Of a stretch of DNA of 64,000 bases, positions 1 to 47,900 are shown piece after piece. The stretch is from a virus. Within the stretch, counting starts at the first letter, position 1; each line of letters begins with the position of its first letter. Below the pieces are notes generated by a model that saw only the letters and a list, made by a program, of their open reading frames with translations, was not told the DNA's origin and made no database searches. The stretch spans positions 1-64,000 of IMG/VR virus record IMGVR_UViG_3300024299_000001. The stretch is one strand, 5' to 3'. Both the position numbers and the translations under genes were made by a program.

Positions 1-300
1 TACATCAGACCTTTTGCCAAAGACCAGATTGCCGTAGTTCCACCTTGACAACCATCCAGTTGTTTCATTAACAAAGTCATCGCAGTCGTGGGATTCTTCA
101 ATATATAATCGTCTGTCTGCTGGATTGGCAACACAAACAGGTTTAATCATCTCTGGTTTTATCAACCTAAAAATCATATCATCTTCGTAAATATCAAAGG
201 GATGAATACCTGTGAGTGTTCTTATCCTTTGCCTTGCTTCATAAACTGATATTTCTCTCATTTCACCAAGATCAGGTACAGGAGGATTTAAAATATCTGC
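1..300. repeat. Conserved arm 2, copy A (partner 56802..57101)
   Basis: By-eye alignment shows only scattered substitutions over about 300 nt, followed by rapid divergence. Confidence 0.85.
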
Positions 301-573
301 GTAACCTTGAGCTTTAAACATTGACCAATCCCCTGCAAGCCACGCCACTAATTCATCCCCTGTTATCAACCCCATCGGATTAAGTATCTCAGCAATTAAA
401 ATATCAGGATGGATTGAAGGCTTCGGGCATTTCTCTTTAACAGCGATAGAAACCATCTGAAGCTGTACGCTGTCTGGCTGACCGAAACAAGCTATGCAAT
501 CTGCGTATAGACGTTCGTATTGAGTAAAATGGTAATATCCGCCTTCTATGAGATAGTCTTTAATTGTTTTCAT
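1..573 (-). CDS. Paralog of the 256-aa protein at 56628..57398; C-terminus runs off the left window edge
   Basis: Hand translation from ATG (rc) at 573..571 gives MKTIKDYLIEGGYYHF.... The region encoded by nt 1-300 is almost identical to the 56802..57101 product (GYADILNPPVPDLGEMREISVYEARQ...ESHDCDDFVNETTGWLSRWNYGNLVFG). The N-terminal third is diverged. Confidence 0.75.
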   Translation of the reverse strand, partial: MKTIKDYLIEGGYYHFTQYERLYADCIACFGQPDSVQLQMVSIAVKEKCPKPSIHPDILIAEILNPMGLITGDELVAWLAGDWSMFKAQGYADILNPPVPDLGEMREISVYEARQRIRTLTGIHPFDIYEDDMIFRLIKPEMIKPVCVANPADRRLYIEESHDCDDFVNETTGWLSRWNYGNLVFGKRSDV

Positions 574-631
574 TGCTGCCCACCTGTGCCGTTGCTGTAG
601 TATTGTATTAGTGCTTGTTTAATGTCCATTG

Positions 632-2977
632 TTACTCCGCATATATGTTGTCGAGATAATAGTCTAAGGCAAACGAAAAAGTGTCTGAACCTTGATTGCC
701 AGAGTCTATCCCGTTCAAAGTCCAATCATTAGCATTTCCGCTTACGTCATTTCCCATATCACCAGATGCTGCAAAATCGACATGAAAACCGTTTGTGCCG
801 TATGTCCCAGAGAAAGTCTTTGGAATCAGAACACCACCCTTAGTTTCTGTAAAAGATGCTGGTGTAAGAGCGTACCCATCAATAAAATAAATATCTGCTA
901 TTGCCCCCGTCATCGGAATTAAGCCTGAGTTATATGCCCCTATACCATGAAGTGCGGCACTATTAAATCCAGGCTCTGCATTTTGAACTGGAGTTATAGA
1001 CGTAGTAAGTGCTTGATCCGCTGCGTTAACATATATTTTCATACGGTCAGCAGATGTTGCATTTGCTGAATCGTATACAAGCGTTATATGATACCATGTA
1101 CTTGTTGTATTAAAAGCATTATCCGTGGTAACATTCCCCTTTGCAACACCGCTTGAGTTCATTTCCCAGGTAAATTTGCCTGTTGTATGCCAGTAAACAT
1201 CATCGTGGTTAGTTCCATCAATAGCGTTAAAAACATCTGTTATCGTTGAAAAATCAGTGCTATATACCCACGCACTAAATGTCCATAGTTTCTGGTTTCC
1301 GCTTCCTGGGGTTTGGGTTAAATATTCATCTGTTCCATTTAAAGTACAAGTGTCCATAGTTGGGCCTGTGTCTACAACCTTCGCCTGAATCTGGTCAATA
1401 GCATCCTTATCCGCATCAGCAACCCCTGAGATATCCCACGAGTCTGTTTGGTATGTGTCTGCTGAGGTTATGTCTATTGTGTGGGTTGTGAAAGGGTCTT
1501 TATACAGTGTTGCCGATTCAGCATCTGATATTATTTTATCAAAATATCGAACTTGATCTATTTCGCCATTAAAAAAATGAGAGCCATTAAATGAGCCGAT
1601 CCGTGTATATTGACCATTTGTCCACGCAACACTTGCTTGCCCTGATATCTCAGTTTTAACTCCGTTCATTATTGTCTTTATACTGCCAGAAGAATAATCA
1701 TAAGATATAGTTACAAAATTCCATGCATCTATTGTATAATCATTTGTAGTTAATTCTGCGTATGTCGCACCCGCACCTACGATACCGGCATAACATTGTA
1801 ATTTATAATTACCAGTTGTGTTATTCATACCAATTGAAAAAGTATACGGTGGAACGTGCTCAGTTGAAATTAAAGATTCTATTTCAGCATTAGGTTTGAA
1901 CCACATTGAAATCGTAAAATCTGTAAAGGCTTGGAGAGTGGATTCTTGTGTAGTAGATGTACTACCATTAAAAACAGCACATTGATTATATACCCCATCT
2001 GTGTATGTAATGTCTGTAGGAGTAGCATCGTTATTGCCACTTTCATCTGTTGCATCATTATTAAATAAATATAGGGCTTTACAAGAACTATCAGAAAATA
2101 TGTCAAGTGTTGTTTCATCTGAGTACTCATTCCTGATATTAAACTCCAAATTACTACCAGTGCCAGTTGACCGGGCATCGAGCTTGATTGTGTTCTTGCC
2201 TGTGAGATCGAGAATATCCCCGCCTGTTAAGGTCTTGGTAACTGTTTCGTTAAGGCTGTCTGTTGTCGCTGAGAGTTTAAGTGCGTAATCGCCTTGGGTT
2301 TTTATTGTGGATTCGGAGAATGAGTTTAGGGCTGTGGTTTGGAGTTCTATGTGTCTAACCCCTTGAAATTGGACACCTCCATAATTATCAGCAAACTTAA
2401 ATGCGTAATATCTATAAGCTGTTGAATTTGTAAAAGTTATGTACTTTGGATCAGCTACGTTGGATGCTGTATGTTGGTCAAAAGTAGATTGCGAAAGTCC
2501 GGTAATTTGAGTCCAGTTAGTGTCTGTGGCATATGTTAATTCAGCAAAAGCTGCCGCATTATCTGATCCCCATAAAGTAAAATTCTGGACACCGTTTGTC
2601 GTGCTGTTGCCGGAATCGTGACTATTTTCATAATAAACTCTATTAATTATTTTGCTTGACCCTAAATCAATATGGAATCTCTGATTTGTTATCTCGTCAT
2701 CACTCAACCAGTTTGTATCAGTATCGCTCCCAGTTAAAGATGCAGTAGGGTCTGTCGCAGCCCACGGTGGTGTAGCAGCACTATTATAGGTTGTAGCTTT
2801 AACATAAGTAGTGCTTTGTGCAGTAGGAAACTGCCCCGTATAAGCCGTTGCAGACGTAACATAAGCACTCTGAGCAGCACCGTCTGTGGCGTACTCCATG
2901 TAGTCTATTTCGAGGGCAGCAGGACTTGAACCTCTGATAAAGGCAAGAACTCTTTTATGAGCTAATTGAATAGTCAT
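632..2977 (-). CDS. Distal receptor-binding tip A: discoidin (F5/8 type C)-like domain plus two LamG/concanavalin-like lectin domains
   Basis: The long ORF starts at MTIQLAHK (ATG rc 2977..2975). That is 1 nt after the upstream TAA, with GGAGG inside the upstream C-terminus. The WLSDDEITNQRFHIDLGSSKIINRVYYEN...FTLWGSDN pattern is discoidin-like. FTISMWFKPN and WTFSAWVYSTD blocks are LamG-like. Confidence 0.8.
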   Translation of the reverse strand: MTIQLAHKRVLAFIRGSSPAALEIDYMEYATDGAAQSAYVTSATAYTGQFPTAQSTTYVKATTYNSAATPPWAATDPTASLTGSDTDTNWLSDDEITNQRFHIDLGSSKIINRVYYENSHDSGNSTTNGVQNFTLWGSDNAAAFAELTYATDTNWTQITGLSQSTFDQHTASNVADPKYITFTNSTAYRYYAFKFADNYGGVQFQGVRHIELQTTALNSFSESTIKTQGDYALKLSATTDSLNETVTKTLTGGDILDLTGKNTIKLDARSTGTGSNLEFNIRNEYSDETTLDIFSDSSCKALYLFNNDATDESGNNDATPTDITYTDGVYNQCAVFNGSTSTTQESTLQAFTDFTISMWFKPNAEIESLISTEHVPPYTFSIGMNNTTGNYKLQCYAGIVGAGATYAELTTNDYTIDAWNFVTISYDYSSGSIKTIMNGVKTEISGQASVAWTNGQYTRIGSFNGSHFFNGEIDQVRYFDKIISDAESATLYKDPFTTHTIDITSADTYQTDSWDISGVADADKDAIDQIQAKVVDTGPTMDTCTLNGTDEYLTQTPGSGNQKLWTFSAWVYSTDFSTITDVFNAIDGTNHDDVYWHTTGKFTWEMNSSGVAKGNVTTDNAFNTTSTWYHITLVYDSANATSADRMKIYVNAADQALTTSITPVQNAEPGFNSAALHGIGAYNSGLIPMTGAIADIYFIDGYALTPASFTETKGGVLIPKTFSGTYGTNGFHVDFAASGDMGNDVSGNANDWTLNGIDSGNQGSDTFSFALDYYLDNIYAE

Positions 2978-3300
2978 GTTAAACCTCCGGTGTCCAACCA
3001 TTAGTTGTGATAAGCCAATCGTCTGCTGTGTAGTATTGAAAGACCGCTATATCTCCAGCGGTTGACAAGTTCGTAAGGTTCTTACCTTCAGCGTTTGTTG
3101 TGCCGTCCATTAGATAACCATCATTGGCATTTGTATCTACGATAACCTCTATTGCTCCGAGTGTTATAATGGTGAAGTTCATTCCTGCTACCATTAGCGG
3201 GAGTTGACAAGTGCCGGTTACGTTGCAAATGAACGTACCACCGTAAAGATTAGCTCCGGTAAAGTTTGCTGCGAAATTTGCTGCTGAGTCTGTAACCGGA
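2955..3300. repeat. Conserved arm 1, copy A (partner about 58473..58818); spans the fibre C-terminus, the gene junction and the tip N-terminus
   Basis: By-eye alignment. The encoded 109-aa fibre C-termini differ at only 2 residues (I/V, N/A). Confidence 0.85.
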
Positions 3301-4298
3301 GTAAGACTTGGTAAAGCTCCCGCACTTGTAAGTCCTGTTAATGATGTAATGTCACTATTAGCACCATCTGAAGCAGCATTGGCAACTTTGGCCAAGGGTA
3401 TACCATCGTTGTCAAGACCTGTCATTGAGGTGATGCTAGAGTTAACTGGACTTATACTTGCCACTGCAGCGTCTGCTAATACTACATCTGCGTTAGTTGT
3501 TACTACATCTGCGTTAGTTAGTACTACATCTGCTGCTGTATCTATAGCGTCTTGTGCTGTAGTTGCTGCGTCTGCGGCAGTATCTATGGCGTCTTGTGTC
3601 GTTGTCACTACATCTGCATTTGTTGATACTACATCTGCGTTAGTCAGTACAACATCAGCATTTGTTAGAACTAAATCTGCTGCTGTCGCGATTTCATCAA
3701 GTGCTGTTGCAGCAGCGTCTGCTGTAGTTGTTACTACGTCTGCATTCGTTAGTACAACATCAGCGTTAGTTGATACTACATCAGCATTTGTTGACACCAC
3801 GTCTGCAGCTGTTGCAGTTGCATCTGCGTCAGTTAGTATCTCATCTGCTGCAGCCGCAGCTGCAGACACAGCAGCAGCAGCAGCAGATGCAGCAGCAGCA
3901 GTAGTATATGAAGATACGCTACTCATGAGTATAAACTGAGTATTGGCTAAATCATAGCTCAACATAGCTAAACCAGCTGCAGGTAAGTCACCAGCAGCTA
4001 AAGCTGTACCGTCTGGTTGAACAATTGACTTAACACCAATAGAATCTATATTTATAGTACTAGCACCAGTATTTGCGTCTGTAACACGCATCAAGACGGG
4101 CAAACCATCTGTGTATGAAGTAATTGTATTTGTCATTGCCAGAGTATACGCATCAGCTGCACCGCCAGTATCTACGATTCCATAGTTCTCAAACTTAGCA
4201 GCAAGGCCAAACAATTCTGTCATATCGGCTTGTAATCTTGTTATGAGAATCGTTCCCATAGTGTCTGATGTTGCATAAGTATCTTGTGACACACTCAT
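2979..4298 (-). CDS. Tail fibre A (proximal or shaft protein) with Ala-run and heptad tandem repeats
   Basis: 439-aa ORF with RBS GGAG. It has a poly-Ala tract, a TNADVV(S/L/T) repeat array, and a C-terminal 109 aa shared with the ORF at 58498..59352. Confidence 0.8.
   Translation of the reverse strand: MSVSQDTYATSDTMGTILITRLQADMTELFGLAAKFENYGIVDTGGAADAYTLAMTNTITSYTDGLPVLMRVTDANTGASTINIDSIGVKSIVQPDGTALAAGDLPAAGLAMLSYDLANTQFILMSSVSSYTTAAAASAAAAAVSAAAAAADEILTDADATATAADVVSTNADVVSTNADVVLTNADVVTTTADAAATALDEIATAADLVLTNADVVLTNADVVSTNADVVTTTQDAIDTAADAATTAQDAIDTAADVVLTNADVVTTNADVVLADAAVASISPVNSSITSMTGLDNDGIPLAKVANAASDGANSDITSLTGLTSAGALPSLTPVTDSAANFAANFTGANLYGGTFICNVTGTCQLPLMVAGMNFTIITLGAIEVIVDTNANDGYLMDGTTNAEGKNLTNLSTAGDIAVFQYYTADDWLITTNGWTPEV
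3459..3848. repeat. In-frame 21-bp (7-aa) tandem repeat array inside tail fibre A
   Basis: Repeated units actacatctgcgttagttgtt and variants encode TNADVVS/TNADVVL/TNADVVT, interspersed with DAIDTAAD units. This is about aa 151-280 of the ORF. Confidence 0.85.
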
Positions 4299-6911: not shown

Positions 6912-6920
6912 GTTAAATAT

Positions 6921-6940
6921 GGGAGGGATTGCTCCCTCCC
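6921..6940 (-). terminator. GC hairpin (GGGAGGGA-ttgc-TCCCTCCC) after the capsid and head-protein block; possible attenuating terminator
   Basis: Perfect 8-bp stem in the 38-nt gap between 6950 and 6911. It is followed on the transcribed strand by an AT-rich stretch rather than a clean U-run. Confidence 0.4.
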
Positions 6941-6949
6941 ATCCTCAAA

Positions 6950-10976: not shown

Positions 10977-13064
10977 TTATGTAGGTGTCACATTTGTTGG
11001 TGTATTATTCTGTGGTGCTGCAGCCTGTTTCTCTGACGCACTCACCACAAATTTAAGTAGCTCAAGCATAGAACTTTTCTCGTCTGCGTCCATATCAGCC
11101 ATCTTAGCAGCTAAGTCACGCTTAGAGTCAGTGTCTTTCTGAGCTATTTGCTCCCTTGATATTGCACCGTCTTGCATCTTGCCTTTCGCCATTATTTCTA
11201 ACTTCTTGCTCTCGTTTTGTACCTGTGCTGTTTTATGCTTATCGTCACTTTCCAGCTTTTTGGCTTTCATCTGCATCTCAATACCTTGCAGTTTCTGTTT
11301 GCCTTCTTCTTGTTGCTTAATGTAGTTTTTCCAGTTTGCTTTTTCAATTGGAGATAAATCAAGTTTGTCAATCACAGTGAATGGATCAACTGGGAAGCCT
11401 TTTTCCATCATTTCCATAAAGGTTGCCAGCTCAGCCATCATCTTAGTTAAGCCACCAGGGGCTTCTTCCATTCGAATATTGTAATTTAGGTCACGAATTT
11501 TTCTAATCGGCGCAATCATTCCACGCTGTTGATCTACTATATAACCTTGTTGAAAAGTGTATTTCTCAGTTTCACCGAGTATCTTTCTAATCTGTGTCTC
11601 AGGCATAAAGCGTACGATTATCTCAATCTTCCGCTTGTATACTTCTTTAAGTGCAGCTCGATGATTAGCAAATAACTTAGCCAAGATAGTAAGTCCTTGC
11701 TGTTGTCTCAAACGAAGATTTATTCCTGGTTCACGACGCTGCTGTGCAATACCCATCAAGTCAGGATTCACACCACTGATCATCTTCATTGCTTCCCGGT
11801 TCATCTCTTCAAGCTTCATTGGTGCATCAGGGAATTGTGGAACAGATTTTTCTTTAACCTTGTTCAAACCCCCCTTGGTCATAAACGTAATTGCATCAGG
11901 ATCAGCCCATGAGTCTTGCGCTTGTGTGAGATCATGAAATGCATCAATCTCAGCCATGACGCCAACGCCTTGCTTACCCAGGAGTTTAAGTGTATGCATC
12001 CAACGTCTATTGCATTCTTTCTGTGGGTCAATCATACCCTTCACAAGCCCATAGGCCTTGTGCTGCCGGGTTGATCGATCGATATATGCTCTTGCACGAC
12101 AGAGTGAGAAGTTCTTCTTATAGACAGGTGAATCACCTTCCCACAAAATCCGGTCATGTGTGTAGTGCAGCCAATGAATCTTAGTGTCATATACTTGAGT
12201 CAGTTGACCAGATATTTTTTCTTTCTTCAGGAGGTTGTATTCTTTCTTTGTTAGCTCAGTAATTTCCTTCTTGTCACTTATAAAGTAGTATCGCAGATAC
12301 GCAATTCTGTACTCTAAATGTGAGACCAAAACTCGCTTGTTTTGTGAGTCGTAGAACTCAAAAGAATCTGCTTGCACTACGTCTTGGTCTAGATAACCAA
12401 GAGAGTGATCTGAATGCTTACCTAGTCCTTCCAGGCCATCAGTAAAAATTTCTTCCATATCCTTAATGTGCTTAGGATACCTGATGTGAAAGTCTTCTGC
12501 TGTAATCCACTTCTCATAGATGATGTACCGTGCATCACTAAGGTTCGACTTCCTACACATTGGATCAACTAATACCTCATACCCTTCTAATGAGAATTCG
12601 TAGAACTGAAGTTCTTCAGGATTTGCCGGATCAGGTCCTACGTCGACTACTACATCACCAACACCTGTGATAAGTTCATTCTCAAATAGTGTCTTGTGCT
12701 CATCTGCTGCGTCAAGTTGACTTGTGTCAATGTACTTGACAATATCCTCAAGTACTTCACATAAGAAGTCATCACTCTTCTCAACTGGGTATGGATAAAT
12801 ACGTACTGGATTTTGCGACTCAATCCCAACGGCTAGTTCTACAGTAGGATGGATGTAGTTCCATACTAAAGCTTCACGACCCTGCTGCTCTAGCTTAAAC
12901 TTCTCATCATCACTCCACTGGTCACCGGCTTTAAACTTCTGCGCAAGCTGAGCTGACTCAAGCCACTCTAGATTTGCAGTCCAAGCTTCGTCTCGCATCT
13001 CTTTCGCAACTGTCAGTCGATCTTCTTTTGAGAGCTCAGTAAATGATGTATACCAACCAGCCAT
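10977..13064 (-). CDS. Portal protein
   Basis: 695 aa, immediately downstream of the terminase genes, with a charged C-terminal tail. Function comes from position and size. Confidence 0.7.
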   Translation of the reverse strand: MAGWYTSFTELSKEDRLTVAKEMRDEAWTANLEWLESAQLAQKFKAGDQWSDDEKFKLEQQGREALVWNYIHPTVELAVGIESQNPVRIYPYPVEKSDDFLCEVLEDIVKYIDTSQLDAADEHKTLFENELITGVGDVVVDVGPDPANPEELQFYEFSLEGYEVLVDPMCRKSNLSDARYIIYEKWITAEDFHIRYPKHIKDMEEIFTDGLEGLGKHSDHSLGYLDQDVVQADSFEFYDSQNKRVLVSHLEYRIAYLRYYFISDKKEITELTKKEYNLLKKEKISGQLTQVYDTKIHWLHYTHDRILWEGDSPVYKKNFSLCRARAYIDRSTRQHKAYGLVKGMIDPQKECNRRWMHTLKLLGKQGVGVMAEIDAFHDLTQAQDSWADPDAITFMTKGGLNKVKEKSVPQFPDAPMKLEEMNREAMKMISGVNPDLMGIAQQRREPGINLRLRQQQGLTILAKLFANHRAALKEVYKRKIEIIVRFMPETQIRKILGETEKYTFQQGYIVDQQRGMIAPIRKIRDLNYNIRMEEAPGGLTKMMAELATFMEMMEKGFPVDPFTVIDKLDLSPIEKANWKNYIKQQEEGKQKLQGIEMQMKAKKLESDDKHKTAQVQNESKKLEIMAKGKMQDGAISREQIAQKDTDSKRDLAAKMADMDADEKSSMLELLKFVVSASEKQAAAPQNNTPTNVTPT

Positions 13065-15786: not shown

Positions 15787-15950
15787 ATATTATATATTTA
15801 TTTTATTTTAAAATATTTTTAAATAAATATTATATTATATATTAAATTTTATTAAAAATATATAAAAATTTATTTAATTTTTTTATTTACAAATTTATTT
15901 TTTTATTATATAATATATATATTAAATAAATAATAATTATTTATTTAATA
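15787..15950. other. 164-nt tract composed of A/T apart from a single C (candidate DNA unwinding element or UP region)
   Basis: Direct reading: only C15890 interrupts the A/T run. Confidence 0.8.
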
Positions 15951-15955
15951 GATCT

Positions 15956-15984
15956 TTGACATAATATAAAAGCTTTTATATGAG
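15956..15984 (+). promoter_or_regulatory. Candidate early promoter: perfect -35 TTGACA, 17-nt spacer, weak -10 TATGAG
   Basis: TTGACA lies at 15956..15961, immediately after the AT tract. The -10 lacks the final T. Confidence 0.3.
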
Positions 15985-16116
15985 AAGGCTAGAAGACTTC
16001 ACTCTTCTGTAAGAAGAGCGCGAGACTGAATAGCCTGCTTATAAGAAGAGTGTATAACTGTGAGACTCTGATACTGAAGAGTCTCACTCGATGGCCTAAG
16101 CACAAGGAGACTTACT

Positions 16117-16302
16117 ATGAAATCACTAAACTTTGAAACTAACGAAGCTTATATCGCATGTGATTTTGAAGAAACATTCGACAGAACACACTTCAACGAA
16201 TACTTGAAGAATACTGAGATACATGATATGACTGAGTATCTCGAAACTCTTGTACCAGTGTACAGAGCATCGCACACTGACTTTGTTAAACGCCCGTACT
16301 AA
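16117..16302 (+). CDS. Early hypothetical protein (acidic)
   Basis: 61 aa with RBS AAGGAG. It is the first ORF of the plus arm. Confidence 0.55.
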   Translation: MKSLNFETNEAYIACDFEETFDRTHFNEYLKNTEIHDMTEYLETLVPVYRASHTDFVKRPY

Positions 16303-16381
16303 TCAACACAAACATCCGAACAGCGCTCGGGCGATGTAAAACTAAGCGCGTTTACAACACTCAACTTATAAGGAGTACATC

Positions 16382-16708
16382 ATGGCCAAAGCAAAAGAAC
16401 AAAGCGTACAGTTGACTAACACTACAGAGCTGAAAAGCTGGACCAAACCTGAACTTGTAACTGCAGTAATTGAGTATGAAGACTTGCTCCTTGCACTTGA
16501 GAGTAAAATCTCAAGTGTGAAGGTGCCTGTAACAGGGCGCAAAGAACAAGTACTGAAAATCTTGAAGTCAGCTGGACACATAAGCGTCTCAGCTATTGCG
16601 ACGCGCATTGGCATCAGCCAACGCAATGTGTCTTCGCAGATGACATACCTCCGCAAGGACGGTCATGCAATCGCGACCGACTCGCTCGGTCGTAAATTTC
16701 TTGAGTAA
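16382..16708 (+). CDS. Winged-helix DNA-binding protein, paralog 1 (SSQMTYLRKDG family)
   Basis: 108 aa with RBS AAGGAG. The C-terminal 55 aa are near-identical in pattern to the 18233..18562 product. Confidence 0.7.
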   Translation: MAKAKEQSVQLTNTTELKSWTKPELVTAVIEYEDLLLALESKISSVKVPVTGRKEQVLKILKSAGHISVSAIATRIGISQRNVSSQMTYLRKDGHAIATDSLGRKFLE

Positions 16709-16734
16709 TTAACTGATGTCTTCTAGCCTTCTAT

Positions 16735-16786
16735 ATGCGCTGCTCAATAACGAGCAGCGCAACCCTTAACAAGGAGAATGACTATG
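16735..16786 (+). promoter_or_regulatory. Intergenic module copy 1: 9-bp GC hairpin (GCGCTGCTC-aataac-GAGCAGCGC) plus AACCCTTAACAAGGAG RBS plus start
   Basis: This is a nearly identical 52-nt block found three times. The hairpin lies at 16737..16760. Confidence 0.8.
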
Positions 16787-16999
16787 GCTATTGTTTATGT
16801 AGTAATGCTTGACGTAAAGTATGAAGGTTCAACACTCAGAAATTTGTTTAGCAATGAAAACGCAGCACGCAAGTACTGCGCGGCTAATGCCAACGACGTC
16901 GAGTATGATGACGTGAGCTTCTCAATTCACGAGATGACTGTGATTGACGAAGTAAATGTTACCGAGGCTGATGACAAGTATGATCATTACGACTACTAA
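16784..16999 (+). CDS. Early hypothetical protein (acidic C-terminus)
   Basis: I chose the second ATG of ATGACTATG as the start, because the first is only 1 nt from the RBS. Confidence 0.55.
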   Translation: MAIVYVVMLDVKYEGSTLRNLFSNENAARKYCAANANDVEYDDVSFSIHEMTVIDEVNVTEADDKYDHYDY

Positions 17000-17006
17000 C
17001 CTTAAC

Positions 17007-17058
17007 ATGCGCTGCTCAATAACGAGCAGCGCAACCCTTAACAAGGAGGATGATTATG
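17007..17058 (+). promoter_or_regulatory. Intergenic hairpin+RBS module copy 2
   Basis: The hairpin lies at 17009..17032 and has the same sequence as copy 1. Confidence 0.8.
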
Positions 17059-17241
17059 ACTAACCCTAACCGATCTAAAGTTCTCAATGCTGTTCAAACA
17101 TCAATCAAATCAAACGGTTATTACCGTAATGATATGATTGCCAAACAACTCGGTATCCCTAAGCGTGAGGTAAGCAAGATGCTTACTTACCTTAGATGCG
17201 ATAACGGCCACGACTTCACGCGGTATAGAATGAACCGCTAA
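17056..17241 (+). CDS. Short winged-helix-like protein, divergent paralog (KMLTYLRCDNG)
   Basis: 61 aa. The pattern IAKQLGIPKREVSKMLTYLR parallels IATRIGISQRNVSSQMTYLR. Confidence 0.5.
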   Translation: MTNPNRSKVLNAVQTSIKSNGYYRNDMIAKQLGIPKREVSKMLTYLRCDNGHDFTRYRMNR

Positions 17242-17249
17242 CCTTTAAC

Positions 17250-17301
17250 ATGCGCTGCTCAATAACGAGCAGCGCAACCCTTAACAAGGAGAATGACTAT
17301 G
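17250..17301 (+). promoter_or_regulatory. Intergenic hairpin+RBS module copy 3
   Basis: The hairpin lies at 17252..17275. Confidence 0.8.
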
Positions 17302-17490
17302 TCTAAACGTGTTAACATTTCAATGCCTGAAGAATTATATGCAGACGTTAAGAAATATAATCTTAATACTTCTAAAGTATGTCAAAAAGCTTTAGAGACT
17401 GCAATACGATTTGAGAAAGGTAAACGCCGACACCGTCAAAGCATGATTGATAATGCTCATCACATTATCAAAGCTTTACAGCGTGCTTAA
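17299..17490 (+). CDS. Ribbon-helix-helix (CopG/Arc-like) small DNA-binding protein
   Basis: KRVNISMPEELYADVKKY..NTSKVCQKALE fits the RHH strand-helix-helix pattern. Confidence 0.45.
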   Translation: MSKRVNISMPEELYADVKKYNLNTSKVCQKALETAIRFEKGKRRHRQSMIDNAHHIIKALQRA

Positions 17491-17573
17491 AACTCAATGC
17501 CTTAACCATCCGACGCGTCTGGGTGATGTAAAACTTGGCGCACTAACTCTAACCCTTAACAAGGAGGATGATT

Positions 17574-17915
17574 ATGACTGAAACATTATTTACATGTATG
17601 ACACTGGCTGAAGCATTAACTAAAGAAGCTGACGCAGTAAGAAAAACTGAAGACGACATGATGTCTTATGTCGAATGTTACAACGGCCTCGAGCGTATAC
17701 ACCACGATCTGTATACACATGCTGAACTCGATGATCTTAGCGAGACGCTTGAAGCGAACGGCACATGTGACATAAGCATGGACCTTGTACGAATAATGAA
17801 CATATGTCTTGACGGCTTCGGTAAATCTGACGTAGCAAATACACTACGACTACCGATTAGCAACAAGATAATGCAACTCGTACACTTTCTTCATTATCTG
17901 CACAACATGAGTTAA
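17574..17915 (+). CDS. Early hypothetical protein
   Basis: 113 aa. It is preceded by the RBS half of the module (AACCCTTAACAAGGAGG) without the hairpin. Confidence 0.55.
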   Translation: MTETLFTCMTLAEALTKEADAVRKTEDDMMSYVECYNGLERIHHDLYTHAELDDLSETLEANGTCDISMDLVRIMNICLDGFGKSDVANTLRLPISNKIMQLVHFLHYLHNMS

Positions 17916-17930
17916 CCACTAACAAACACC

Positions 17931-17986
17931 AATGCCTCATTGCTTATGATTTACTATCATAGGCGGTGAGGCATTGATGATAGTAA
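17931..17986 (+). promoter_or_regulatory. Two interleaved inverted repeats in A-B-A'-B' order (pseudoknot topology)
   Basis: A is AATGCCTCA (17931-39) and A' is TGAGGCATT (17967-75). B is TTACTATCAT (17951-60) and B' is ATGATAGTAA (17977-86). Confidence 0.7.
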
Positions 17987-18120
17987 GCCCGGCCCAGTGG
18001 GAGAGCGCGGCCAAGTATCAACCAGTACAGAAGATCACGGTCCAGCATCAGCTCACCATCGTCCCAATTTACTATCACCCGGCCCCGCTGGAGAGCTCGG
18101 CCAAGCGCGATACCCAGTCC

Positions 18121-18232: not shown

Positions 18233-18562
18233 ATGGCCAAAGAATTGATGAGTATGACCAAAGAAGAATTGGTGGCAATGATTGAAGCACAGTCAGTAGA
18301 GATCAACAAAGTGAAGGATGCAGCTGGTGGCCGGAAACTTCAGGTATTGAAGATACTTCAGACTGGAGACCACACCACAGTGAAAGCCATCGCTGCAAGA
18401 ATCGGTATCTCAGACAGGAATGTCTCATCTCAAATGACGTACCTCCGCAAGGACGGATATGCCATCGCAACAGACAGTCTTGGCCGGAAGTTTCTTGAAT
18501 CCACAGGTCAGGTGCATGAATCAGCTGGAGCCAAGGTTATAACCAGAAAGAAAGCAGTATAA
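18233..18562 (+). CDS. Winged-helix DNA-binding protein, paralog 2
   Basis: 109 aa with RBS AAGGAGG. It contains VKAIAARIGISDRNVSSQMTYLRKDGYAIATDSLGRKFLE. Confidence 0.7.
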   Translation: MAKELMSMTKEELVAMIEAQSVEINKVKDAAGGRKLQVLKILQTGDHTTVKAIAARIGISDRNVSSQMTYLRKDGYAIATDSLGRKFLESTGQVHESAGAKVITRKKAV

Positions 18563-18620
18563 CAAATAACCTGTGCGGTGAGTCTATCTCACCGCACAAT
18601 TTAATCAGGAGGAACTCAGT

Positions 18621-18957: not shown

Positions 18958-18996
18958 AATGCCCGGGCATCTCAATGTGTCCGGGCATTTTTATTT
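18958..18996 (+). terminator. Rho-independent terminator
   Basis: AATGCCCGG ... CCGGGCATT is a 9-bp stem followed by TTTTATTT. Confidence 0.75.
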
Positions 18997-19050
18997 ACTA
19001 TCATCGGCGGGACTGGAGAGCTCGACCAAATAAGATCTGGATTCTAGAAA

Positions 19051-40077: not shown

Positions 40078-40625
40078 GTCTCTCCTTGCTGAATGATAAA
40101 TCCACCAGCAGCTTGAATTAAGTTAACACATAATGTAGGATGAACAGTCCAAGGTCTCACAGTACTCCACTTCAGTGCTTTGACGATAGGAGTAATAAGT
40201 TCCTCTGAGCAGAAAGTTTTCTCTGGGTCTTCTTTGATGAATTTGTATCTAAAGTTGACAATACCGGCCCAGTCGTATTCTTTCTTATCTTCACATGACT
40301 TAACATAATGCGCTAAGCAGTACTCCCAGTCAAGTCTTGACATATTAAGTGCCCATATCTCATAAGGTGTTCCTGAAGTGTGGTCGTGCATGTCATTGTA
40401 GTCCATCCAGGATTTTATACGACCGCTATGCGGCCACTGCTCCATTAAGTTCATCTGATCAAGCTTTATCTTGGTTGCTCGTTCTTCGCCGATAAGAGTC
40501 TTGATATATAGACGTTCTGCGTCATCAATATAAACTGCGCTGTGTGAGTAAGGTCCTGTCTGATTCTGAATAACTTTTGATATAGTTGATAATCCGTAGA
40601 AGTGTGCTGATTTCAGTGTGATCAT
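40074..40625 (-). CDS. Permuted papain-fold (YiiX/C92-like) amidase; candidate endolysin
   Basis: YSHSAVYID ... YDWAGIVNFRYKF...FCSEELI shows a His-then-Cys order typical of the permuted family. It sits next to small TM proteins. Confidence 0.5.
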   Translation of the reverse strand: MITLKSAHFYGLSTISKVIQNQTGPYSHSAVYIDDAERLYIKTLIGEERATKIKLDQMNLMEQWPHSGRIKSWMDYNDMHDHTSGTPYEIWALNMSRLDWEYCLAHYVKSCEDKKEYDWAGIVNFRYKFIKEDPEKTFCSEELITPIVKALKWSTVRPWTVHPTLCVNLIQAAGGFIIQQGET

Positions 40626-40780
40626 TTCTTAGCGTCCTTTACTTTATCAAATAAACTTAACAGCAGATCAAAGTCACCAGAATATGCTGCAGCAATAATA
40701 AGTGTTACTAATATTAATGTGATACAACCCATAGCCCATCTCTTTGTCGCTGGTTCCCAGTCTTTAATCCACTTAATCAT
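40622..40780 (-). CDS. Small TM protein (52 aa; hand-called); holin or spanin candidate
   Basis: MIKWIKDWEPATKRWAMGCITLILVTLIIAAAY.... GGAG lies 6 nt upstream, and there is an ATGA overlap with the amidase start. Confidence 0.45.
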   Translation of the reverse strand: MIKWIKDWEPATKRWAMGCITLILVTLIIAAAYSGDFDLLLSLFDKVKDAKK

Positions 40781-41693: not shown

Positions 41694-41963
41694 TTACCTC
41701 AGTACCATCAAAACTAGATTTGGTGTACCAGCAGACGCTTTAGCGTAAAATATAGTCTCACCTTTAGCTTGTGCTATATCTATATTAAAAGTTTGATTTG
41801 CTAAAGTTAAGCCATTTACTGTACCTGCTGTAGTATCAGATATATAAAATGCTGTTCCGTCGTCTACCCAAAAACTAATTGACCCGCAGCTTTGTGAAGC
41901 ACCTAGCGATATAGCAGTGTAGGTACTTGTGTTTAGCGCTGTTACGACCAGAGGTTGAATCAT
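41694..41963 (-). CDS. Small beta-rich structural protein
   Basis: 89 aa. Its ATG overlaps the stop of the giant gene. Confidence 0.5.
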   Translation of the reverse strand: MIQPLVVTALNTSTYTAISLGASQSCGSISFWVDDGTAFYISDTTAGTVNGLTLANQTFNIDIAQAKGETIFYAKASAGTPNLVLMVLR

Positions 41964-44900
41964 AATGTACTCCTTTGTTTTTCGTACTTGTTTGGTTTAA
42001 AAGTTTGCTTCAAATTTCTATTTAGCCATTTGCCAGTTATATAAGGTATCAAGAGCTTGGGCTTAGAAGTATACACTGCATTGTTGTATGCACGTATCTT
42101 GTCTGCTAAGTCCATTAATATTTCTGGGTCTTGCTTATATAGTGGCAAAGTGTAAAATCTGTTGTAGCGTCGTAGTATGTCAGACCGGTCTGCAGTGTAC
42201 TCTCTACGTTCTTGCGTCTCTGACCATTGACGGTCACGGATAGCCGAGAGTCTTGACGGACTGAATGAGAAGAGTCTGAGTATAACTTCATACGGTGTGC
42301 TCTTCAGTGGTGTCGTACCGTGATACACAGGTGCATATGAACCAGTAGTAAGTCCTTCAGTAAACTCTCGTTTACCCTTGATGATATTACCCAGTGCTCT
42401 AGGTGCTAAGTCCTCAAGTCCTTTCTCAGTTTCACCAAATGTGAAGTGCTCGTACGCTTTGGCAAAGTCTGACCATATGGCAAGTGGTGCACCACCAATC
42501 TCTATGACCTTCTTAGGAAATGGACTATTCATCTGGAGTGATCCAGTCATGTCTATTCCAGTTGTTGCACCAATTAAACCTGTACGAGCTATAGTATCTG
42601 ATCCAGTTAAGTCTTCAATAAATTGGTAGAACCTTTCTTCTGGGTCTTCGTGTCCTGGCCACATAGCTTTGATAAGTGTAGTTAACATAGTAGCTGGTAC
42701 TCCAGCCAATAGAGCTGGCGCCATCAGCATATACAGTGGCGCAATAATCTGTTTCTTGTTAAGTCCAAGGTCAAGCATGTTCAGTATGTAGTTGTGCTGA
42801 AACTTCATAAATGTAAAGGGCAAGTCAAGTAGTCGTATCTTCTGGATAACCCAAGGCTTGGCTGCTTTACCATATGTACCATGAGCTTGACTTGATATTT
42901 CTTTGGCATGCTGCAGCAGTTCTTTATGCGCTTTCTCAATCAGCTTGGGGTCTTTAGAAGAGTTCAAGGTAGTGTTAATTCTCTTATACATCTCCTTATC
43001 AGACTGTCTTAGAGCTTTATAAGCAGCAAATATAGTTGTAGCACGATTCACCTTCTCAGTTGCTCCAAACATGACCATAGCGTGTTTTAGAATCTCATTA
43101 AAGACTCTAGAACCTATACCTTGTATTACACGAGCAGCCTCATAGTTGAAATTTGCTTCATCCCAGCCTTGACTTGTTATGTAGTCAAATATCGCCTTAT
43201 CTTCAGCTGATAACGTGCCTGAACCAACCAGACTATGTATACCTAGTTTCTTAGATAAGCCAGCTCTGTATTTTGTATACTGAGTAACACTGTTTGCTAC
43301 ATGCTTTCCAGACTGTGCAAGATTTAAGCCAGTGTAACCAGTAATTGTAGCAGGTACAGCAAGTACCATATTTGTCAAGTTGACTGCTGCTGAACTTACA
43401 CGACCACCTAAGTACATGACGACTGCTAAAGCTTTGAAGTAACCAACAGCTCTGTCAAACCCTGTATCAGGCTTTAAGAAGAACTGCATGTATAAACGTG
43501 TTGCTTTATATAATCCTTTCTGGGTAGTAGGATCAATTGCTTTTTTCTTTACTTCAGTCAAGTAGTCCGTGTACGTGCCTTTCTTGTTAGTCTTCTGCCA
43601 GTCTTTAAATGACGTTTCACGACCTGTAAAAGCTAGGAGCATGTTACGTGTTGTTGTACGACGTGCTTCACCAGCAGCAAGTCGCTGTGCGTAACTTGTA
43701 AAAGCTTTATTCATGTCAGTCTCGAAGCCAGCGTAGTATCTTTTAGATCGCTGTTTACGTGATGTCAGTCTACCTTTTATCTTATACACGTCTGCAATGT
43801 TCTGCGCCATTTGATTGTGTATAGACTGCAGTACTTTAGTATCAGCGTCTTTCTTAACATTTTCTTCTGCGTTCTTAAGTAACGAGTCCATAGATGTTAT
43901 GAGCCCAGGAACATCAAAGATCACATCAGTAGGTGTAGGAGTTACTTTTATACTTACGTCATAACCGAGTGCTTTAAGACGTCTTGCTTCCACACCAACT
44001 GGCATTCTTGTATTAATCAACTGACGTGTCTTATTTACCCAAGGAGAAGACAATACGTTCTGTGGCAGATACCCTGAGTAAGTCTTTGTCACTAACTTAC
44101 CGTTTGAGTGCTCCGCTTTTAGAACATAGGCTTTACTCTGTCGTTCTCTAGGAAAGTAAGTACCTCGTAAGTCGCCTATCCTTGTTATTAACTGGCTAAT
44201 GGCGAGCTGCCGTGTTTTGCCTTTGTCATCTGTATATTGTGCTGTAGGAGCTTTAAGTCCATTCTCTTTGGCACTTGCAACTTGGCGTCTTAGCTCTTCT
44301 GTTAGTAGTGTAAAGCCTCGGTCAGTCAACAAACGTGCTTCTTTCACCATGTCCAGAGATGCTTGATTGAACTTGCGTTTCTTGAGCATCTGCTGCTCGA
44401 ATGATATCATCTTGCGTGTGGCTTCTTCTTCAGTCTTAGCTCTTCCAACAACTTTGTTAGATGGGTTCATCACTAGCCATGTAGTCTTCACCACTTTAGC
44501 GTTCTCAGTCTTTGTCACTGTGCTCTTAGTCTTTACTGAATATCCTCTACCTGTTGCATCTGTCTGCAGTAAGTAGTCATTAGCAATCTTGTAAGCTTTC
44601 TTGTAGCCACTAGTCTTCTTAAGATTCTTAATCAAGTTAGTCCAGTTACCGAGCACGAACTTCTCAATAGTATATTTAAGGTTATCTTCTCGTAATGCAT
44701 GACTCATAACCTTCTTGGCTTGTGCACCACGTCTCAAGTAATACTCAGGAGAGTTAAACAGTAAGCCCATGATACCGATGTTCTGCTCATGTGCTTTCCT
44801 TGTGAAGCCGTCACTTTCATCAAGCTTGTCAGATTCGTCAATCACGTTGTTGAATAGCTTAGCAATCTTAGCACGTAAAGGCACTTTAGAGGTTTCTTGA

Positions 44901-47900
44901 TCTTTCATCACGTCTCTAAAGAGCTTCTCTGCCTCTGCCTTATTGTCACCCAATATCTCGCCATCTAGTTTAGCTTGTTCAGCTTTAGTACGCACCTTAG
45001 CTGCGAGTGGTACTTTATCAGCAGATACGGTGTCGATAAGCTCTTGATTAAACTCAAACGAATTAAATTCTTTACCTGCTTTTGCGTAGTCTTTTATCTT
45101 GGTTGTAGTTAACTTACCACCGCCATATGGTTTAAATAACTTAGTAATAGTTTGTGGAAGATACTCTGTGTACTTCTTTACTATACCATCAACTATTTGA
45201 ATACCTTCAGTTGAGTCATATATCCATTTACCATCAGCATCTTGTCTAAAATTACTAGGCCAACCTTCTATAGCTGCTACATGATAAGGAGTCTTTGCCC
45301 AGATAAGTTTTGTGTGTCCTAGTGCTACGGCTTCCATAACCGCTCGTTTAAGAGCTAACTGAGTAGAATTGTCTTTAAATGGAAGATCGGGCTGTGCTCT
45401 AAGACTTTTTTTAGCTAAGAATGCTGGTTCTATAAGTTTTTCCATAACTTTTGAATCACGAATTATACTTTCTACGTCTTGTACAGAGATAGATTTACGT
45501 ACGTCTCTAGACAATCCACGTATTATATTAATCGCTAAATCTTCTGCGTCTACGTAAATAGCGGGACTATATGGACCAAAAGGACCAAAGAAACGTCCTT
45601 CCACGTGTATTTTAAAGTTTCTTTTTACGTCTTTATCATCTAAGTTTTTCTTCGTTATAGGAATAGTATCGTGCATCTTATTGACTATATAGTTTACATA
45701 ATGTTTAACTTTGGCATTTCCAGGTTCAGTTAACTGCCTTAGTTTAAGCGTATTTTTATCATATGTTTTTTTATCAGTATACCCGTACTTCTTTGCGTCT
45801 TGATGAGTATCAGACTGAATCTCGTGTATATATAATCCGTCACCTATAGAAGATACACGTAAATGTACTACTTCATTTTCTAACCTAAAGTGTTTACCTT
45901 TTTTACTAAGTTCAGTGTCTTTTATAGCTGGAATTTGTATAATTATCTCTTGGTAGTCTTTTAAACCTGTGGCTGTTGGTAAAGTAACATAGTCAGCTTC
46001 AACAGGCGCATTTCTATAAGCATCGCTAAATAAGGCGTCTTGTACCTCAGTTAAGTAACCTTGATCTTGTACAGCGTCTCGAATAATTCGCCAGTCTTCT
46101 ACTAAGTCTTCGTCAGCAAGTAAAAAGTCTTTGCTTTGTTTACTCATTAAGTCAGAGCTAATTGGAGCTAAACTATCTCTAAGAGAATTACTGTCTAAAG
46201 ATGTGTCGTTTAAAACATTAATTAAAAGATGATCCCGTACTTCAGGATATACACCTAAATTGTCTAACTTATCACGAATTATGTCTCTGAATACTATATA
46301 CTTATCATCCACAGCTACAATTAGTGTAGCAAAAGTATAAGACTCGCCTTTATTAAAATCACCATTTATATCTGGATACTCAGTTTCATTAATAGGCTTT
46401 GTTAAAAGTTCATTAACTCTATTAACAGCAGGTCCCGAAAACCCACTAGCTCGTTCAGCTATATAGTCTTCTGGATTTATACCTTCTTCATGTAACTGAT
46501 CAAATAGTGTTATATCGCGACCACCTAGTACAGTCTCATCCATTCTTGCTTTTAGGCCGTACTTAGCTAAGTGGTCCATAACTTGCTGCTTAGTAACTTT
46601 GCCTTTCTGTTTCTGCATCCACTCACGTAAATTAGAAAAGAAGAACTCTTCTTTTACATGAATCGGCATAGACTTGTTTGTCCAAGACTTAAATGTGTTA
46701 AGCCAGTTTTCAGGAGTCGCTTTACCTGGACCCTTAGCTTGTATGAAGTCGTCTTCAAGTCGTGAAGAAAACTTAGGTGCCAACTTAGAAGCTTTAGGTT
46801 TCGTTGGCGGTTTTAAAGGCAGTATATCAGCGTTCTTTCTGTCTTTGGCTTTCTCTAGTACGGTAATATTTCCAGGTGTTGTCATACCACCCTGAGGCTT
46901 AGCTTTATAACCACCAAAAGCGTCATCATATACTTTTGCAAAAGCTATCATGCCAGAAGTTAAAAAATCATATCGTTGTTCTAACTCAGCTTTTAACTTC
47001 GTGTACTCCCTAAATTTAAAAATACCTATTTCAGCTGTTAAAGCTTGCTTAGCATTCCATATTTTCTTTCTAGCTTGTACGTCAGTATCTTCAGCTTTTA
47101 TACCTGTTGCAGCGTCCCAAATTTTAAAAACTTCAGGTCGCATAGCATAATAAACTCGATCAGCTACTTCTACAGGAGTAATTGCAATTCTGTCGTTTAC
47201 CGACGTTTTATCGTAAGCCGACTTTGCAGGGAATTTTATTATTTTAGAAGCTAAGGGAATATCATTACGTTTTTTAACTACAGTTTGATTTAGTATTTTT
47301 TGATCCCATATAACGTAGTTAAAAGTTTTTCTTTCGTATCTTTTATACCGCGTCCAACCATCAATGAAACGTAAACCTGGAATACCAAATTTTTTAAACT
47401 CTAATGACGCAGCTTTATCTGATCCAAGCGCTTTAGATACGGCTCTGTATATATAACTACCTAGAGTATTATTATTTATACGCCGCATGTGAAGCTTGTT
47501 TTTGTATGGCACACTGTTTTTTCTTTGTACACTGTTAATAAGCTTGTGCATCTTTGCTCGTGCCATTGGTTTTTGTTGACCTAATGTTCTATCCCAATGA
47601 AAAAGTTGACTTATAGCAGGCGAAGGCATTTCTAACTTATACAAAGACGCGTCTTTATTAGTTGAGCGCGTAAAGTTTATCTTAGCTTGTTTAAGTTTCC
47701 AAGCATTTATAAGATGCCCTGCTTGATCATATAAAGGCAGTAGCCGTGCATTTTCAAAAGATGCTTGATCACGACGTAAGGCTTCAAGTTCAATATCTAA
47801 ATACCACAAAGCATCTTCATATATTTCTTGTGTGTCGTGTATATGTGTAGTACCATTAAATGCAAATCCTACATATGCAAGTGCTATATCTTCAGCAGTA

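Follow-up and report, generated by a model that had tools for sequence, protein, structure and literature searches.

The window analysed here, 64,000 nt from the start of a 131-kb IMG/VR record (IMGVR_UViG_3300024299_000001), contains an early operon of small phage genes in which three exact copies of one palindrome stand between consecutive cistrons. The elements of this region, in order along the sequence, are:

15886-15914: second promoter candidate, TTTACA-17-TATAAT.
15956-15984, + strand: likely early promoter, TTGACA-17-TATAGA, which heads the operon.
16060-16087, + strand: 5'-leader hairpin of the first early gene (16117-16302), a different 10-bp hairpin with AAGGAG 19 nt downstream.
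16313-16349, + strand: second leader, copy 1; CATCCGA, stem GCGCT/AGCGC (16323-16327 / 16345-16349) and conserved loop CGGGCGATGTAAAACTA, between genes 16117-16302 and 16382-16708.
16736-16761, + strand: hairpin copy 1; 10-bp stem and loop AAUAAC, 27 nt past the stop codon of the winged-helix gene 16382-16708.
16762-16786, + strand: leader 1; ACCCTTAAC-AAGGAG-N7-ATG of gene 16784-16999.
16784-16999: gene, 71 aa, weak DUF7336-like match.
17008-17033, + strand: hairpin copy 2, 8 nt past the stop codon of 16784-16999.
17034-17058, + strand: leader 2; CA-rich spacer as in leader 1, AAGGAG and the ATG of 17056-17241.
17056-17241: gene, 61 aa, weak winged-helix-like match.
17251-17276, + strand: hairpin copy 3, 9 nt past the stop codon of 17056-17241.
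17277-17301, + strand: leader 3; spacer, AAGGAG and the ATG of gene 17299-17490.
17299-17490: gene, 63 aa, CcdA/ribbon-helix-helix-like.
17507-17541, + strand: second leader, copy 2; CATCCGA, stem GCGTC/GGCGC (17515-17519 / 17537-17541) and loop TGGGTGATGTAAAACTT, filling the slot expected for a fourth hairpin.
17551-17576, + strand: leader 4, hairpin-less; 29 nt identical to leader 2, before gene 17574-17915 (113 aa).
17930-17976, + strand: long 21-bp hairpin with 3 G.U pairs and no T-run, closing the first early operon.
18572-18598, + strand: U-less 11-bp hairpin of other sequence, 9 nt past the stop codon of 18233-18562 (a paralogous winged-helix gene), followed by AGGAGG and the ATG at 18621.
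18958-18997, + strand: canonical intrinsic terminator, a hairpin followed by TTTTATTT.

The gaps of the operon are all structured, by the 5'-leader hairpin, the second leader (twice), the repeated hairpin (three times) and the terminal long hairpin, and a 19-nt long-range complement (15983-16001 / 16714-16732) adjoins copy 1. The repeated palindrome, TGCGCTGCTC-AATAAC-GAGCAGCGCA, is perfect over its 26 nt (10-bp stem, 6-nt loop) and occurs in three exact copies on the + strand; with up to three mismatches allowed, no further copy was found in the window or in the 131-kb record, and shuffled sequences are expected to yield 0. All three copies precede the sequence AACCCTTAACAAGGAG-N7-ATG, and AACCCTTAACAAGGAG itself recurs exactly at 16761, 17033, 17276 and 17551, against 0.05 expected matches. 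The initial annotation had described three identical modules of hairpin and ribosome-binding site plus a hairpin-less fourth, and exact matches at 16736, 17008 and 17251, with the leader motif again at 17551, bear this out; the stem, which it gave as 9 bp, is computed as 10 bp, while its observation that no U-run follows stands. The repeat as a whole spans 68 nt at 82-93% identity, reaching codon 1 or 2 of otherwise unrelated genes, and falls into two subtypes, GGAGAATGACTATG (copies 1 and 3) and GGAGGATGATTATGACT (copies 2 and 4). The four starts (ATG at 16784, 17056, 17299 and 17574), each with AAGGAG 7 nt upstream, are also called by gene callers on other assemblies.

The hairpin has a predicted folding energy of -19 kcal/mol (z = -5.9) and is placed a few nucleotides past a stop codon and about 10 nt ahead of the next gene's Shine-Dalgarno (SD) sequence. 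Its flanks contribute no stable lower stem, so that the 10-bp helix has neither a coaxial extension nor an internal loop. No -35/-10 pair of a sigma70 promoter is common to the units, and the lone promoter-scan match (16766-16794, 9/12) relies on sequence specific to the gene at copy 1. Neither a Megablast search of GenBank phages with the region nor an exact scan of IMG/VR for the hairpin gave a match, and Rfam at permissive thresholds returned only a meaningless miRNA-like match on the long hairpin (17915-17993). Since the direct repeat CCTTAACA is found flanking copies 2 and 3, a miniature mobile element was considered, but set aside as speculative: the repeat is missing at the hairpins of a second phage that carries such units (L009), and no dispersal of the element over the genome is seen.

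Two functions proposed by the initial annotation are not supported on closer inspection. The first is translational coupling, considered here together with the further idea of a translation insulator. The SD sequence lies outside the hairpin and the hairpin outside the upstream open reading frame, and the sole predicted structure touching the SD is a weak 4-bp CCUU/AAGG mini-stem. Opening the SD and start is computed to cost 6.4-8.2 kcal/mol, a value that in silico deletion or disruption of the hairpin leaves essentially unchanged (shifts of at most 1.4 kcal/mol, inconsistent in direction).

The second is that the hairpins are DNA-hairpin promoters for a virion-packaged, N4-type RNA polymerase (vRNAP), a reading in whose favour stand the GC-rich inverted repeat ahead of early genes and a vRNAP gene in the same database record. 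That record consists of two phage genomes fused via a tail-gene repeat common to both:

1-56801: genome A, a ~57-kb uncultured podophage, which bears the hairpins.
56802-131159: genome B, N4-like and complete, which encodes the vRNAP.
59375-70186: vRNAP gene of genome B, 3603 aa.

Genome A closes on itself without the vRNAP or the genes matching PF00940 and phrog_2206, and those matches are confined to genome B (59420-69034, 63311-63655 and 98433-99557 of the record); searches with PF00940 and phrog_2206 recognised no RNA polymerase domain in positions 1-56801. A vRNAP concealed in the 3275-aa protein of genome A was considered and rejected, since this protein has no match in Pfam, PHROG or PDB and resembles the vRNAP's C-terminal 1537 residues in no BLASTP comparison. 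In the early promoters P1-P3 of coliphage N4, a 5-7-bp stem carries a 3-nt loop whose central base on the template strand is a purine; these promoters are located close to the end of the genome, upstream of and not within the early transcription units, and depend on the vRNAP. The units here share with them a GC-rich inverted repeat in three copies before early genes, but none of these other properties: stem and loop measure 10 bp and 6 nt, and the sites lie 8-27 nt past stop codons, inside an operon with upstream sigma70-type promoters. Genome B, moreover, has hairpin repeats of its own elsewhere in the record, with a 4-5-bp stem and a 3-nt loop (N4-promoter-like candidates AGGCCTCCGGC). On the sequence as read here, the N4-type promoter is already contradicted, and we give it practically no credence; the elements themselves are most likely ordinary RNA hairpins and not promoters for an injected polymerase. 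The chimeric nature of the record also makes gene links drawn across the 56.8-kb boundary unsafe, including the conclusion that an N4-like phage possesses a further giant protein or that these early genes are preceded by vRNAP promoters.

Comparison with related phages is more informative on function. A strong hairpin is found at the same place, a few nucleotides past a stop codon, in about 80 related early regions, and among 114 downstream regions drawn from 98 related loci, at least 83 have a hairpin of at least 8 bp within about 35 nt of the stop codon, 3' of homologous winged-helix genes. The unique hairpins divide into those with a T-run (42), which are canonical terminators, and those without (30); 17 of the latter are followed within 35 nt by an SD and a start codon. 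Hairpins of this last kind mostly begin 3-13 nt past the stop codon and, as in the window, are U-less and precede a CA-rich spacer, SD and start codon. The full arrangement of U-less hairpin, SD and ATG occurs 28 times in the sense orientation of 82 non-redundant early regions, versus 2 in the antisense control. Hairpin sequence varies between genomes and usually also within one genome (e.g. L016, L018 and L040), with stems of 8 to 20 bp and no common motif, which indicates that structure and not sequence is conserved. Since its arms are perfect, the window hairpin carries no strand information, and the argument that the element acts at the RNA level rests on the relatives, in which G.T pairs outnumber A.C mismatches by 13:3 in U-less hairpins and by 14:1 in true terminators, although the strict subset of U-less hairpins with an SD holds just 3 G.T versus 1 A.C. 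GNRA tetraloops number 4/13 and 6/8, and have no antisense counterparts. Together these counts point to RNA of the sense strand.

From this evidence we consider it somewhat more probable than not that the hairpins are U-less intercistronic structures of the sense-strand early message of genome A, acting as decay barriers or punctuation. The operon would be transcribed by the host sigma70 RNA polymerase, which would read through the hairpins because they carry no U-tract, so that the operon remains polycistronic. The transcript would then be cut in the single-stranded CA/AU-rich spacers, after which each hairpin would bar 3'-to-5' exonucleases from entering the upstream cistron and might protect the following cistron at its 5' end as well, splitting the early message into stable units. 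Read-through, cleavage and stabilisation by the hairpins are all steps that we infer. The three copies would be identical because the unit, comprising the hairpin and a lineage-wide CA-rich AAGGAG leader, multiplied locally through duplication or gene conversion, and in its make-up the unit resembles the promoter-early stem-loop (PeSL) cassettes of T4-like phages without their promoter; as the three loops are identical too, the hairpin may have a specific protein partner in this lineage. Intercistronic stabiliser hairpins are known from the REP sequences of malE-malF and from the puf operon of Rhodobacter; they are thought to block 3' exonucleases, and REP sequences near stop codons also affect the upstream gene. 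What is found here is likewise a stable sense-strand stem-loop between cistrons that lacks terminator features and that polymerase would read through. REP sequences, however, are imperfect palindromes that are scattered over the whole genome and moved by RAYT transposases, whereas the hairpins here are phage-borne, local, perfect and tied to a fixed translation leader.

An alternative that we regard as unlikely, though the least so of the rival readings, is that the hairpins are weak or conditional attenuators, which stop some polymerases without a U-tract, for example when upstream translation is slow, so that expression falls stepwise along the operon. Many relatives hold canonical terminators in the same slot, some of them directly followed by SD and ATG (L047, L090 and L111), and the stem-loops of PeSL cassettes lowered the expression of lacZ placed behind them as a strong terminator does (PMC2839356). 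The hairpins also adjoin a stop codon, where ribosomes modulate termination, repressing terminators that lie a few base pairs beyond it (PMC4824070). RNA polymerases tested in vitro, on the other hand, require a U-tract for termination (PMC3993855), and the hairpin tail here is ACCCTTAAC, without a T-run and with only 2 T in the 9 nt 3' of the stem. A terminator scan does not report the units but does report 18958-18989, in keeping with the initial annotation's view that they are not classical terminators, and the proper U-tract terminator at 18958-18997 shows that the phage employs such terminators at points where transcription is meant to end. With three strong stops one after another, hardly any expression of the CcdA-like and 113-aa genes would be left.

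The hairpins could also be sites of the RNase III type, at which the polycistronic early transcript is processed into separate single-gene messages, as in the early mRNA of T7 or in SP82. Like the T7 sites and the Bacillus RNase III sites of SP82, they are structured elements between consecutive early genes of a phage operon transcribed by the host polymerase, and they share the high identity of the repeats that is reported for those of SP82; T7 and SP82 sites leave hairpins at message ends, and the 19-nt complement beside copy 1 could give a longer duplex. Bacterial RNase III substrates normally comprise about two helical turns, however, and the duplexes at the T7 and SP82 sites are longer (about 20 bp), irregular and interrupted by internal loops, whereas a plain 10-bp helix without internal loop or coaxial lower stem is present here, and the relatives' hairpins differ in length and share no motif. 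We therefore hold cleavage by RNase III at the hairpins to be very unlikely. The initial annotation had offered RNase III processing and stabilisation as one option: the comparative evidence favours stabilisation, and the stem is too short for a T7-type site.

Just as improbable, in our estimation, is that the palindrome is an operator, or translational operator, through which a small early winged-helix or ribbon-helix-helix protein regulates the three genes together. The identity of the copies, loop included, would suit such a site, and the operon encodes several small proteins of both kinds. The sites are nevertheless inside the operon and not at its promoters. Relatives that encode these proteins carry hairpins of unrelated sequence, frequently several kinds within a single genome, and the third copy in the second phage has a different loop and compensated stem changes. 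The G.U and GNRA bias speaks against a DNA site.

That the units act mainly as DNA, as 52-68-bp patches of identity serving as recombination linkers for the gain, loss or swap of small early genes, with the RNA hairpin incidental, is likewise an unlikely reading, slightly more so than attenuation. It takes its appeal from the extent of the identity, which extends past the stem and the SD and takes in the initial codons of unrelated genes, and from the relatives, whose early-gene content varies widely while the leader is shared: the CA-rich AAGGAG leader is common to early genes of the closest relatives checked, its half of the unit recurs before early genes of L024, L030 and L022, and in the second phage two 100%-identical units flank one small gene. 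There is also a precedent in the PeSL cassettes (Arbiol et al. 2010, PMC2839356; Comeau et al. 2014, PMC4122927), whose unit extends from stop codon to ATG and holds a stem-loop and SD (PMC2839356). By analogy, the units here resemble PeSL-like cassettes minus the promoter, being repeated intergenic stretches from stop codon to ATG with a stable stem-loop, SD and start codon, which precede small, variable early genes of unknown function in near-identical copies within one genome. They differ from PeSL in having neither an internal sigma70 promoter nor an AT-rich upstream part, so that expression of the genes requires polymerase to read through from the promoter of the operon, and in numbering only three or four over ~850 bp. 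Against a linker function, no shuffling event and no cassette indel bounded by the units was found among strain-level contigs (those with CcdA-like or winged-helix genes), all of which are clonal (100% identical, same gene order) and merely break at the repeats; in more distant relatives gene content differs, at a divergence too large to map endpoints. Hairpins within most relatives are unlike one another, yet the slot is kept, which requires a structural role and not sequence identity.

The second repeated leader noted by the initial annotation is confirmed at 16313-16349 and 17507-17541, and two related phages have it as well. It is a conserved 5-bp stem with compensatory changes. A scan of IMG/VR with a 15-nt degenerate pattern gave chance matches only, while a structure-aware scan of the fetched loci gave four good copies and one doubtful (L028). 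No Rfam family matches it, and its identification as a preQ1-I riboswitch was rejected by topology and Rfam. We regard it as a candidate for a small, conserved regulatory RNA; as a conserved element with compensatory changes that falls outside the Rfam families, it deserves a test.

Returning to the stabiliser hairpins that we favour, the slot they occupy, as compared across these genomes, is one that interconverts within the lineage between a U-tract terminator and a U-less hairpin with a ribosome site. Similar hairpins of the form ..CCAC-AWT-GTGG.. have a T-run if nothing follows (L085, L068 and L089) and none where a gene follows (L059, L075, L071 and L073). This provides a clean natural series of terminators turning into read-through stabilisers. 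More speculatively, and as a proposal that we think unlikely to hold, this lineage of uncultured marine podophages may assemble its early operons out of portable units that lack a promoter and combine a structured RNA element with a shared CA-rich AAGGAG leader; such units would set message stability and also serve as recombination linkers through which small host-takeover genes are exchanged. The second leader (CATCCGA and a 5-bp covarying stem with the invariant loop GGGYGAUGUAAAACU, possibly a pseudoknot) would then be one such interchangeable element, and may represent a cis-regulatory RNA not described before, to which a factor of the phage or of the host binds.

Three copies of a perfect 26-nt palindrome (TGCGCTGCTC-AATAAC-GAGCAGCGCA; hereafter hairpin A) lie between small early genes at 16736, 17008 and 17251 on the + strand, each followed directly by the leader AACCCTTAACAAGGAG, which occurs a fourth time, hairpin-less, at 17551; this bears out both the three hairpin and ribosome-binding-site modules and the solitary fourth ribosome-binding-site half proposed in the initial annotation. 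No further copy of hairpin A was found in the window or in the 131,274-bp record with up to 3 mismatches allowed, and shuffled sequences gave 0. The repeat copies align across 68 nt at 82-93% identity, the similarity extending past the Shine-Dalgarno (SD) site into the opening codons of unrelated genes, and two subtypes alternate (copies 1 and 3 read GGAGAATGACTATG, copies 2 and 4 GGAGGATGATTATGACT). Hairpin A folds as RNA at -19 kcal/mol (z = -5.9), leaving the SD site free and external to it, and it has neither a promoter nor a U-tract, the missing U-run having been noted correctly at the outset. The hairpin and leader repeat is a real feature. Each gap in the first early operon contains a structure, and the strong GC hairpins of the phage (phage A below) are concentrated in the early region.

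Features of the early region (window coordinates)
15886: candidate sigma70-type promoter, TTTACA-17-TATAAT
15956: likely sigma70-type early promoter, TTGACA-17-TATAGA
16060-16087: first early operon, 10-bp hairpin within its 5' leader
16117-16302: gene upstream of the hairpin units, 61 aa
16313-16349: second leader, copy 1, first early operon
16382-16708: winged-helix gene upstream of the hairpin units, paralogue of 18233-18562
16736, 17008, 17251, + strand: hairpin A, first early operon
16784-16999: gene after leader 1, 71 aa, weak DUF7336-like match
17056-17241: gene after leader 2, 61 aa, weak winged-helix-like match
17299-17490: gene after leader 3, 63 aa, CcdA/ribbon-helix-helix-like
17507-17541: second leader, copy 2, first early operon
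17574-17915: gene after leader 4, 113 aa, no match
17930-17976: 21-bp hairpin closing the first early operon
18142, 19696: extended -10 promoters
18572-18598: different hairpin without T-run, plus SD, in the next operon after winged-helix gene 18233-18562
18958-18997: proper terminator ending the next operon, with TTTTATTT

Each true start is preceded, at a distance of 6 nt, by an in-frame ATG (ATGACTATG, ATGATTATG; 16771-16786 and equivalents), so that the protein lengths from ORF finders and from some gene callers come out as 73, 63, 65 and 115 aa, not 71, 61, 63 and 113 aa. A long-range inverted repeat (15983-16001/16714-16732; 19 nt, 95% complementary) brackets the first two early genes and could pair into a duplex of RNase III size if the upstream promoter starts transcription; because its 3' arm directly precedes hairpin copy 1, that copy lies 27 nt from the stop codon and the others 8-9 nt. 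The direct repeat (A)CCTT(T)AACA flanks copies 2 (16998-17007/17034-17043) and 3 (17241-17250/17277-17286), and the leader at 17551 resembles an "empty site"; the palindrome could thus have been inserted into an already existing leader. Flanks of this kind are absent around the identical hairpins of a related locus, L009. The box ACTATCATC or its complement GATGATAGT occurs at 17949-17960, 17977-17985, 18067-18077 and 18993-19003, and recurs just 3' of early terminators in many related phages (L018, L028, L029, L036, L024, L086, L098), making it a lineage-wide candidate signal.

Using the winged-helix early gene as a marker of such early regions, we compared 98 related loci drawn from viral contigs and metagenomes. 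At least 83 of the 114 distinct regions downstream of winged-helix genes have a hairpin of at least 8 bp that starts within ~35 nt of the stop codon; the hairpin slot is conserved across the phage lineage. Among the unique hairpins, 42 carry a T-run and are canonical terminators and 30 do not (U-less); in 17 of these 30 an SD site and start codon come within the next 35 nt, as in the window, and the hairpin mostly starts 3-13 nt after the stop and ends 7-12 nt before the SD. The composite of U-less hairpin, SD and ATG occurs 28 times in sense versus 2 in antisense across 82 non-redundant early regions (144 kb). Different phages have unrelated hairpin sequences, and a single phage usually carries hairpins that are unlike one another (L016, L018, L040); identical copies occur, among the loci compared, only in the window phage, whose strain-level contigs are clonal, and in L009, where the loop of a third copy is different and its stem has changed in ways that retain pairing through G.U. 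Closely similar hairpins (..CCAC-AWT-GTGG..) have a T-run when followed by nothing (L085, L068, L089) and lack one when followed by a gene (L059, L075, L071, L073), so the two forms look interconvertible in evolution. Among the closest relatives checked, the leader half TAACCC(C/T)(A/T)AACAAGGAG precedes early genes of L024, L030 and, more loosely, L022, and therefore looks like a translation leader shared within this branch of the lineage; what varies between phages is the hairpin. Phage A also has a U-less 10-bp GC hairpin in the late operon (6919-6942, - strand; ATGGGAGGGA-GCAA-TCCCTCCCAT, a GNRA loop, next ATG 8 nt on), of the same intercistronic kind but among structural genes.

In imperfect stems, G.T pairs outnumber A.C mismatches 13:3 in U-less hairpins and 14:1 in true terminators, our positive control; of the tetraloops, 4 of 13 in the former and 6 of 8 in the latter are GNRA, and none of the relatives' tetraloops is the antisense equivalent. 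The hairpins are therefore read as sense-RNA structures, and DNA cruciforms or operators were rejected on these grounds. The argument rests on homologous positions in relatives because the window's hairpin is a perfect palindrome; that this palindrome is itself a protein operator is, given the strand bias, highly improbable.

The 131,274-bp "DTR" record holds two complete core-gene sets.

Segments of the record
1-56801: segment A, 56.8 kb, 40.5% G+C; large terminase, portal, major head protein, DNA polymerase, primase-helicase, ligase, exonuclease
56802-131159: segment B, 74.4 kb, 36.3% G+C; 3603-aa vRNAP (59375-70186), N4-type RNAPII, major head protein, portal, large terminase, DNA polymerase, primase

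An exact 115-bp repeat at 1, 56802 and 131160 is the record's "direct terminal repeat", and sits inside ~750 bp of tail-gene sequence that is 82-96% similar (window 1-577, 56626-57381; record 130984-131274). ENA contig k141_496968 (55,432 bp) matches window 5149->1 at 100% and then runs on along 56801->48868, so that the two ends of A meet directly and no vRNAP separates them. One JGI contig (56,939 bp, 56,801 + 138) has the repeat at its end, and a second stops at window position 4. A JGI contig of 97 kb carries the record-like join, which is what an assembler is expected to produce on crossing a shared repeat. Two complete phage genomes were co-assembled into the record, joined through that repeat; the independent assemblies settle the topology. 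Further patches of 84-93% identity in tail and late genes (2954-3302 vs 58473-58821; 40622-40702 vs record 130820-130897) suggest that these unrelated phages exchanged receptor-binding modules and share a host.

This chimerism gave rise to the proposal that the hairpins are N4-type promoters served by a giant virion polymerase, which falls because the vRNAP belongs to B, not to the hairpin-bearing A. In a six-frame search all PF00940 and phrog_2206 matches lie within B, and Pfam, PHROG and PDB gave no match to A's 3275-aa protein (41960-51787); phage A thus has no recognisable polymerase of its own, and it has sigma70-type promoters, leaving an N4-type role for hairpin A scarcely conceivable. 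Genome B itself carries, in its early region, three copies of A(A/C)AGGCCTCCGGC(C/T)ATA (record 93418, 95735, 96318; L005:9418-9428, 11735-11745, 12318-12328) with a 4-5-bp stem and a 3-nt loop reading GGA on the opposite strand; they look like N4-type promoters and are candidate vRNAP promoters.

The second repeated leader, described initially before the genes at 16382 and 17574, holds up and recurs in relatives, giving four known copies (window 16313-16349 and 17507-17541; L024:1351-1385; L030:1543-1577). They share CATCCGA and the loop YGGGYGATGTAAAACTN (invariant, GGGYGATGTAAAACT), closed by a 5-bp stem in fixed register (GCGCT/AGCGC, GCGTC/GGCGC or GCTGC/GCAGC) with compensatory changes on both sides in 3 of 5 pairs, one via G.U. 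The upstream CAUC could pair with the in-loop GAUG as a pseudoknot. The element, 10-16 nt past the stop codon and ahead of the shared leader, occupies the hairpin's slot; no Rfam family matches it, and its MFE is unexceptional. With four sequences, we treat it as a lead for a conserved structured element.

Of the three readings left open initially, the stabilising hairpin is favoured. Bacterial polymerases fail to terminate where the U-tract is missing (PMC3993855), and a terminating ribosome represses, as terminators, hairpins a few bases past a stop codon (PMC4824070); attenuation by the hairpins is unlikely. On the best reading, which we consider somewhat better than an even bet, these are read-through intercistronic mRNA hairpins that make stable cistron units. 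Polymerase would read through the U-less hairpins, endonucleases would cut the single-stranded CA/AU-rich spacers, and the hairpins would then arrest 3' exonucleases and might also shield 5' ends, each small cistron becoming a stable unit. That the hairpins are themselves RNase III sites is very doubtful. Local duplication or gene conversion of the entire unit is the best explanation for the three copies being identical; that the repeat is purely a DNA-level recombination linker is decidedly unlikely. Such whole-unit copying resembles that proposed for the promoter-early stem-loop (PeSL) cassettes of T4-like phages (PMC2839356, PMC4122927), although the window's units lack the promoter component. 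The feature thus belongs to a well-known kind, that of intercistronic mRNA hairpins and PeSL-like repeated leaders.
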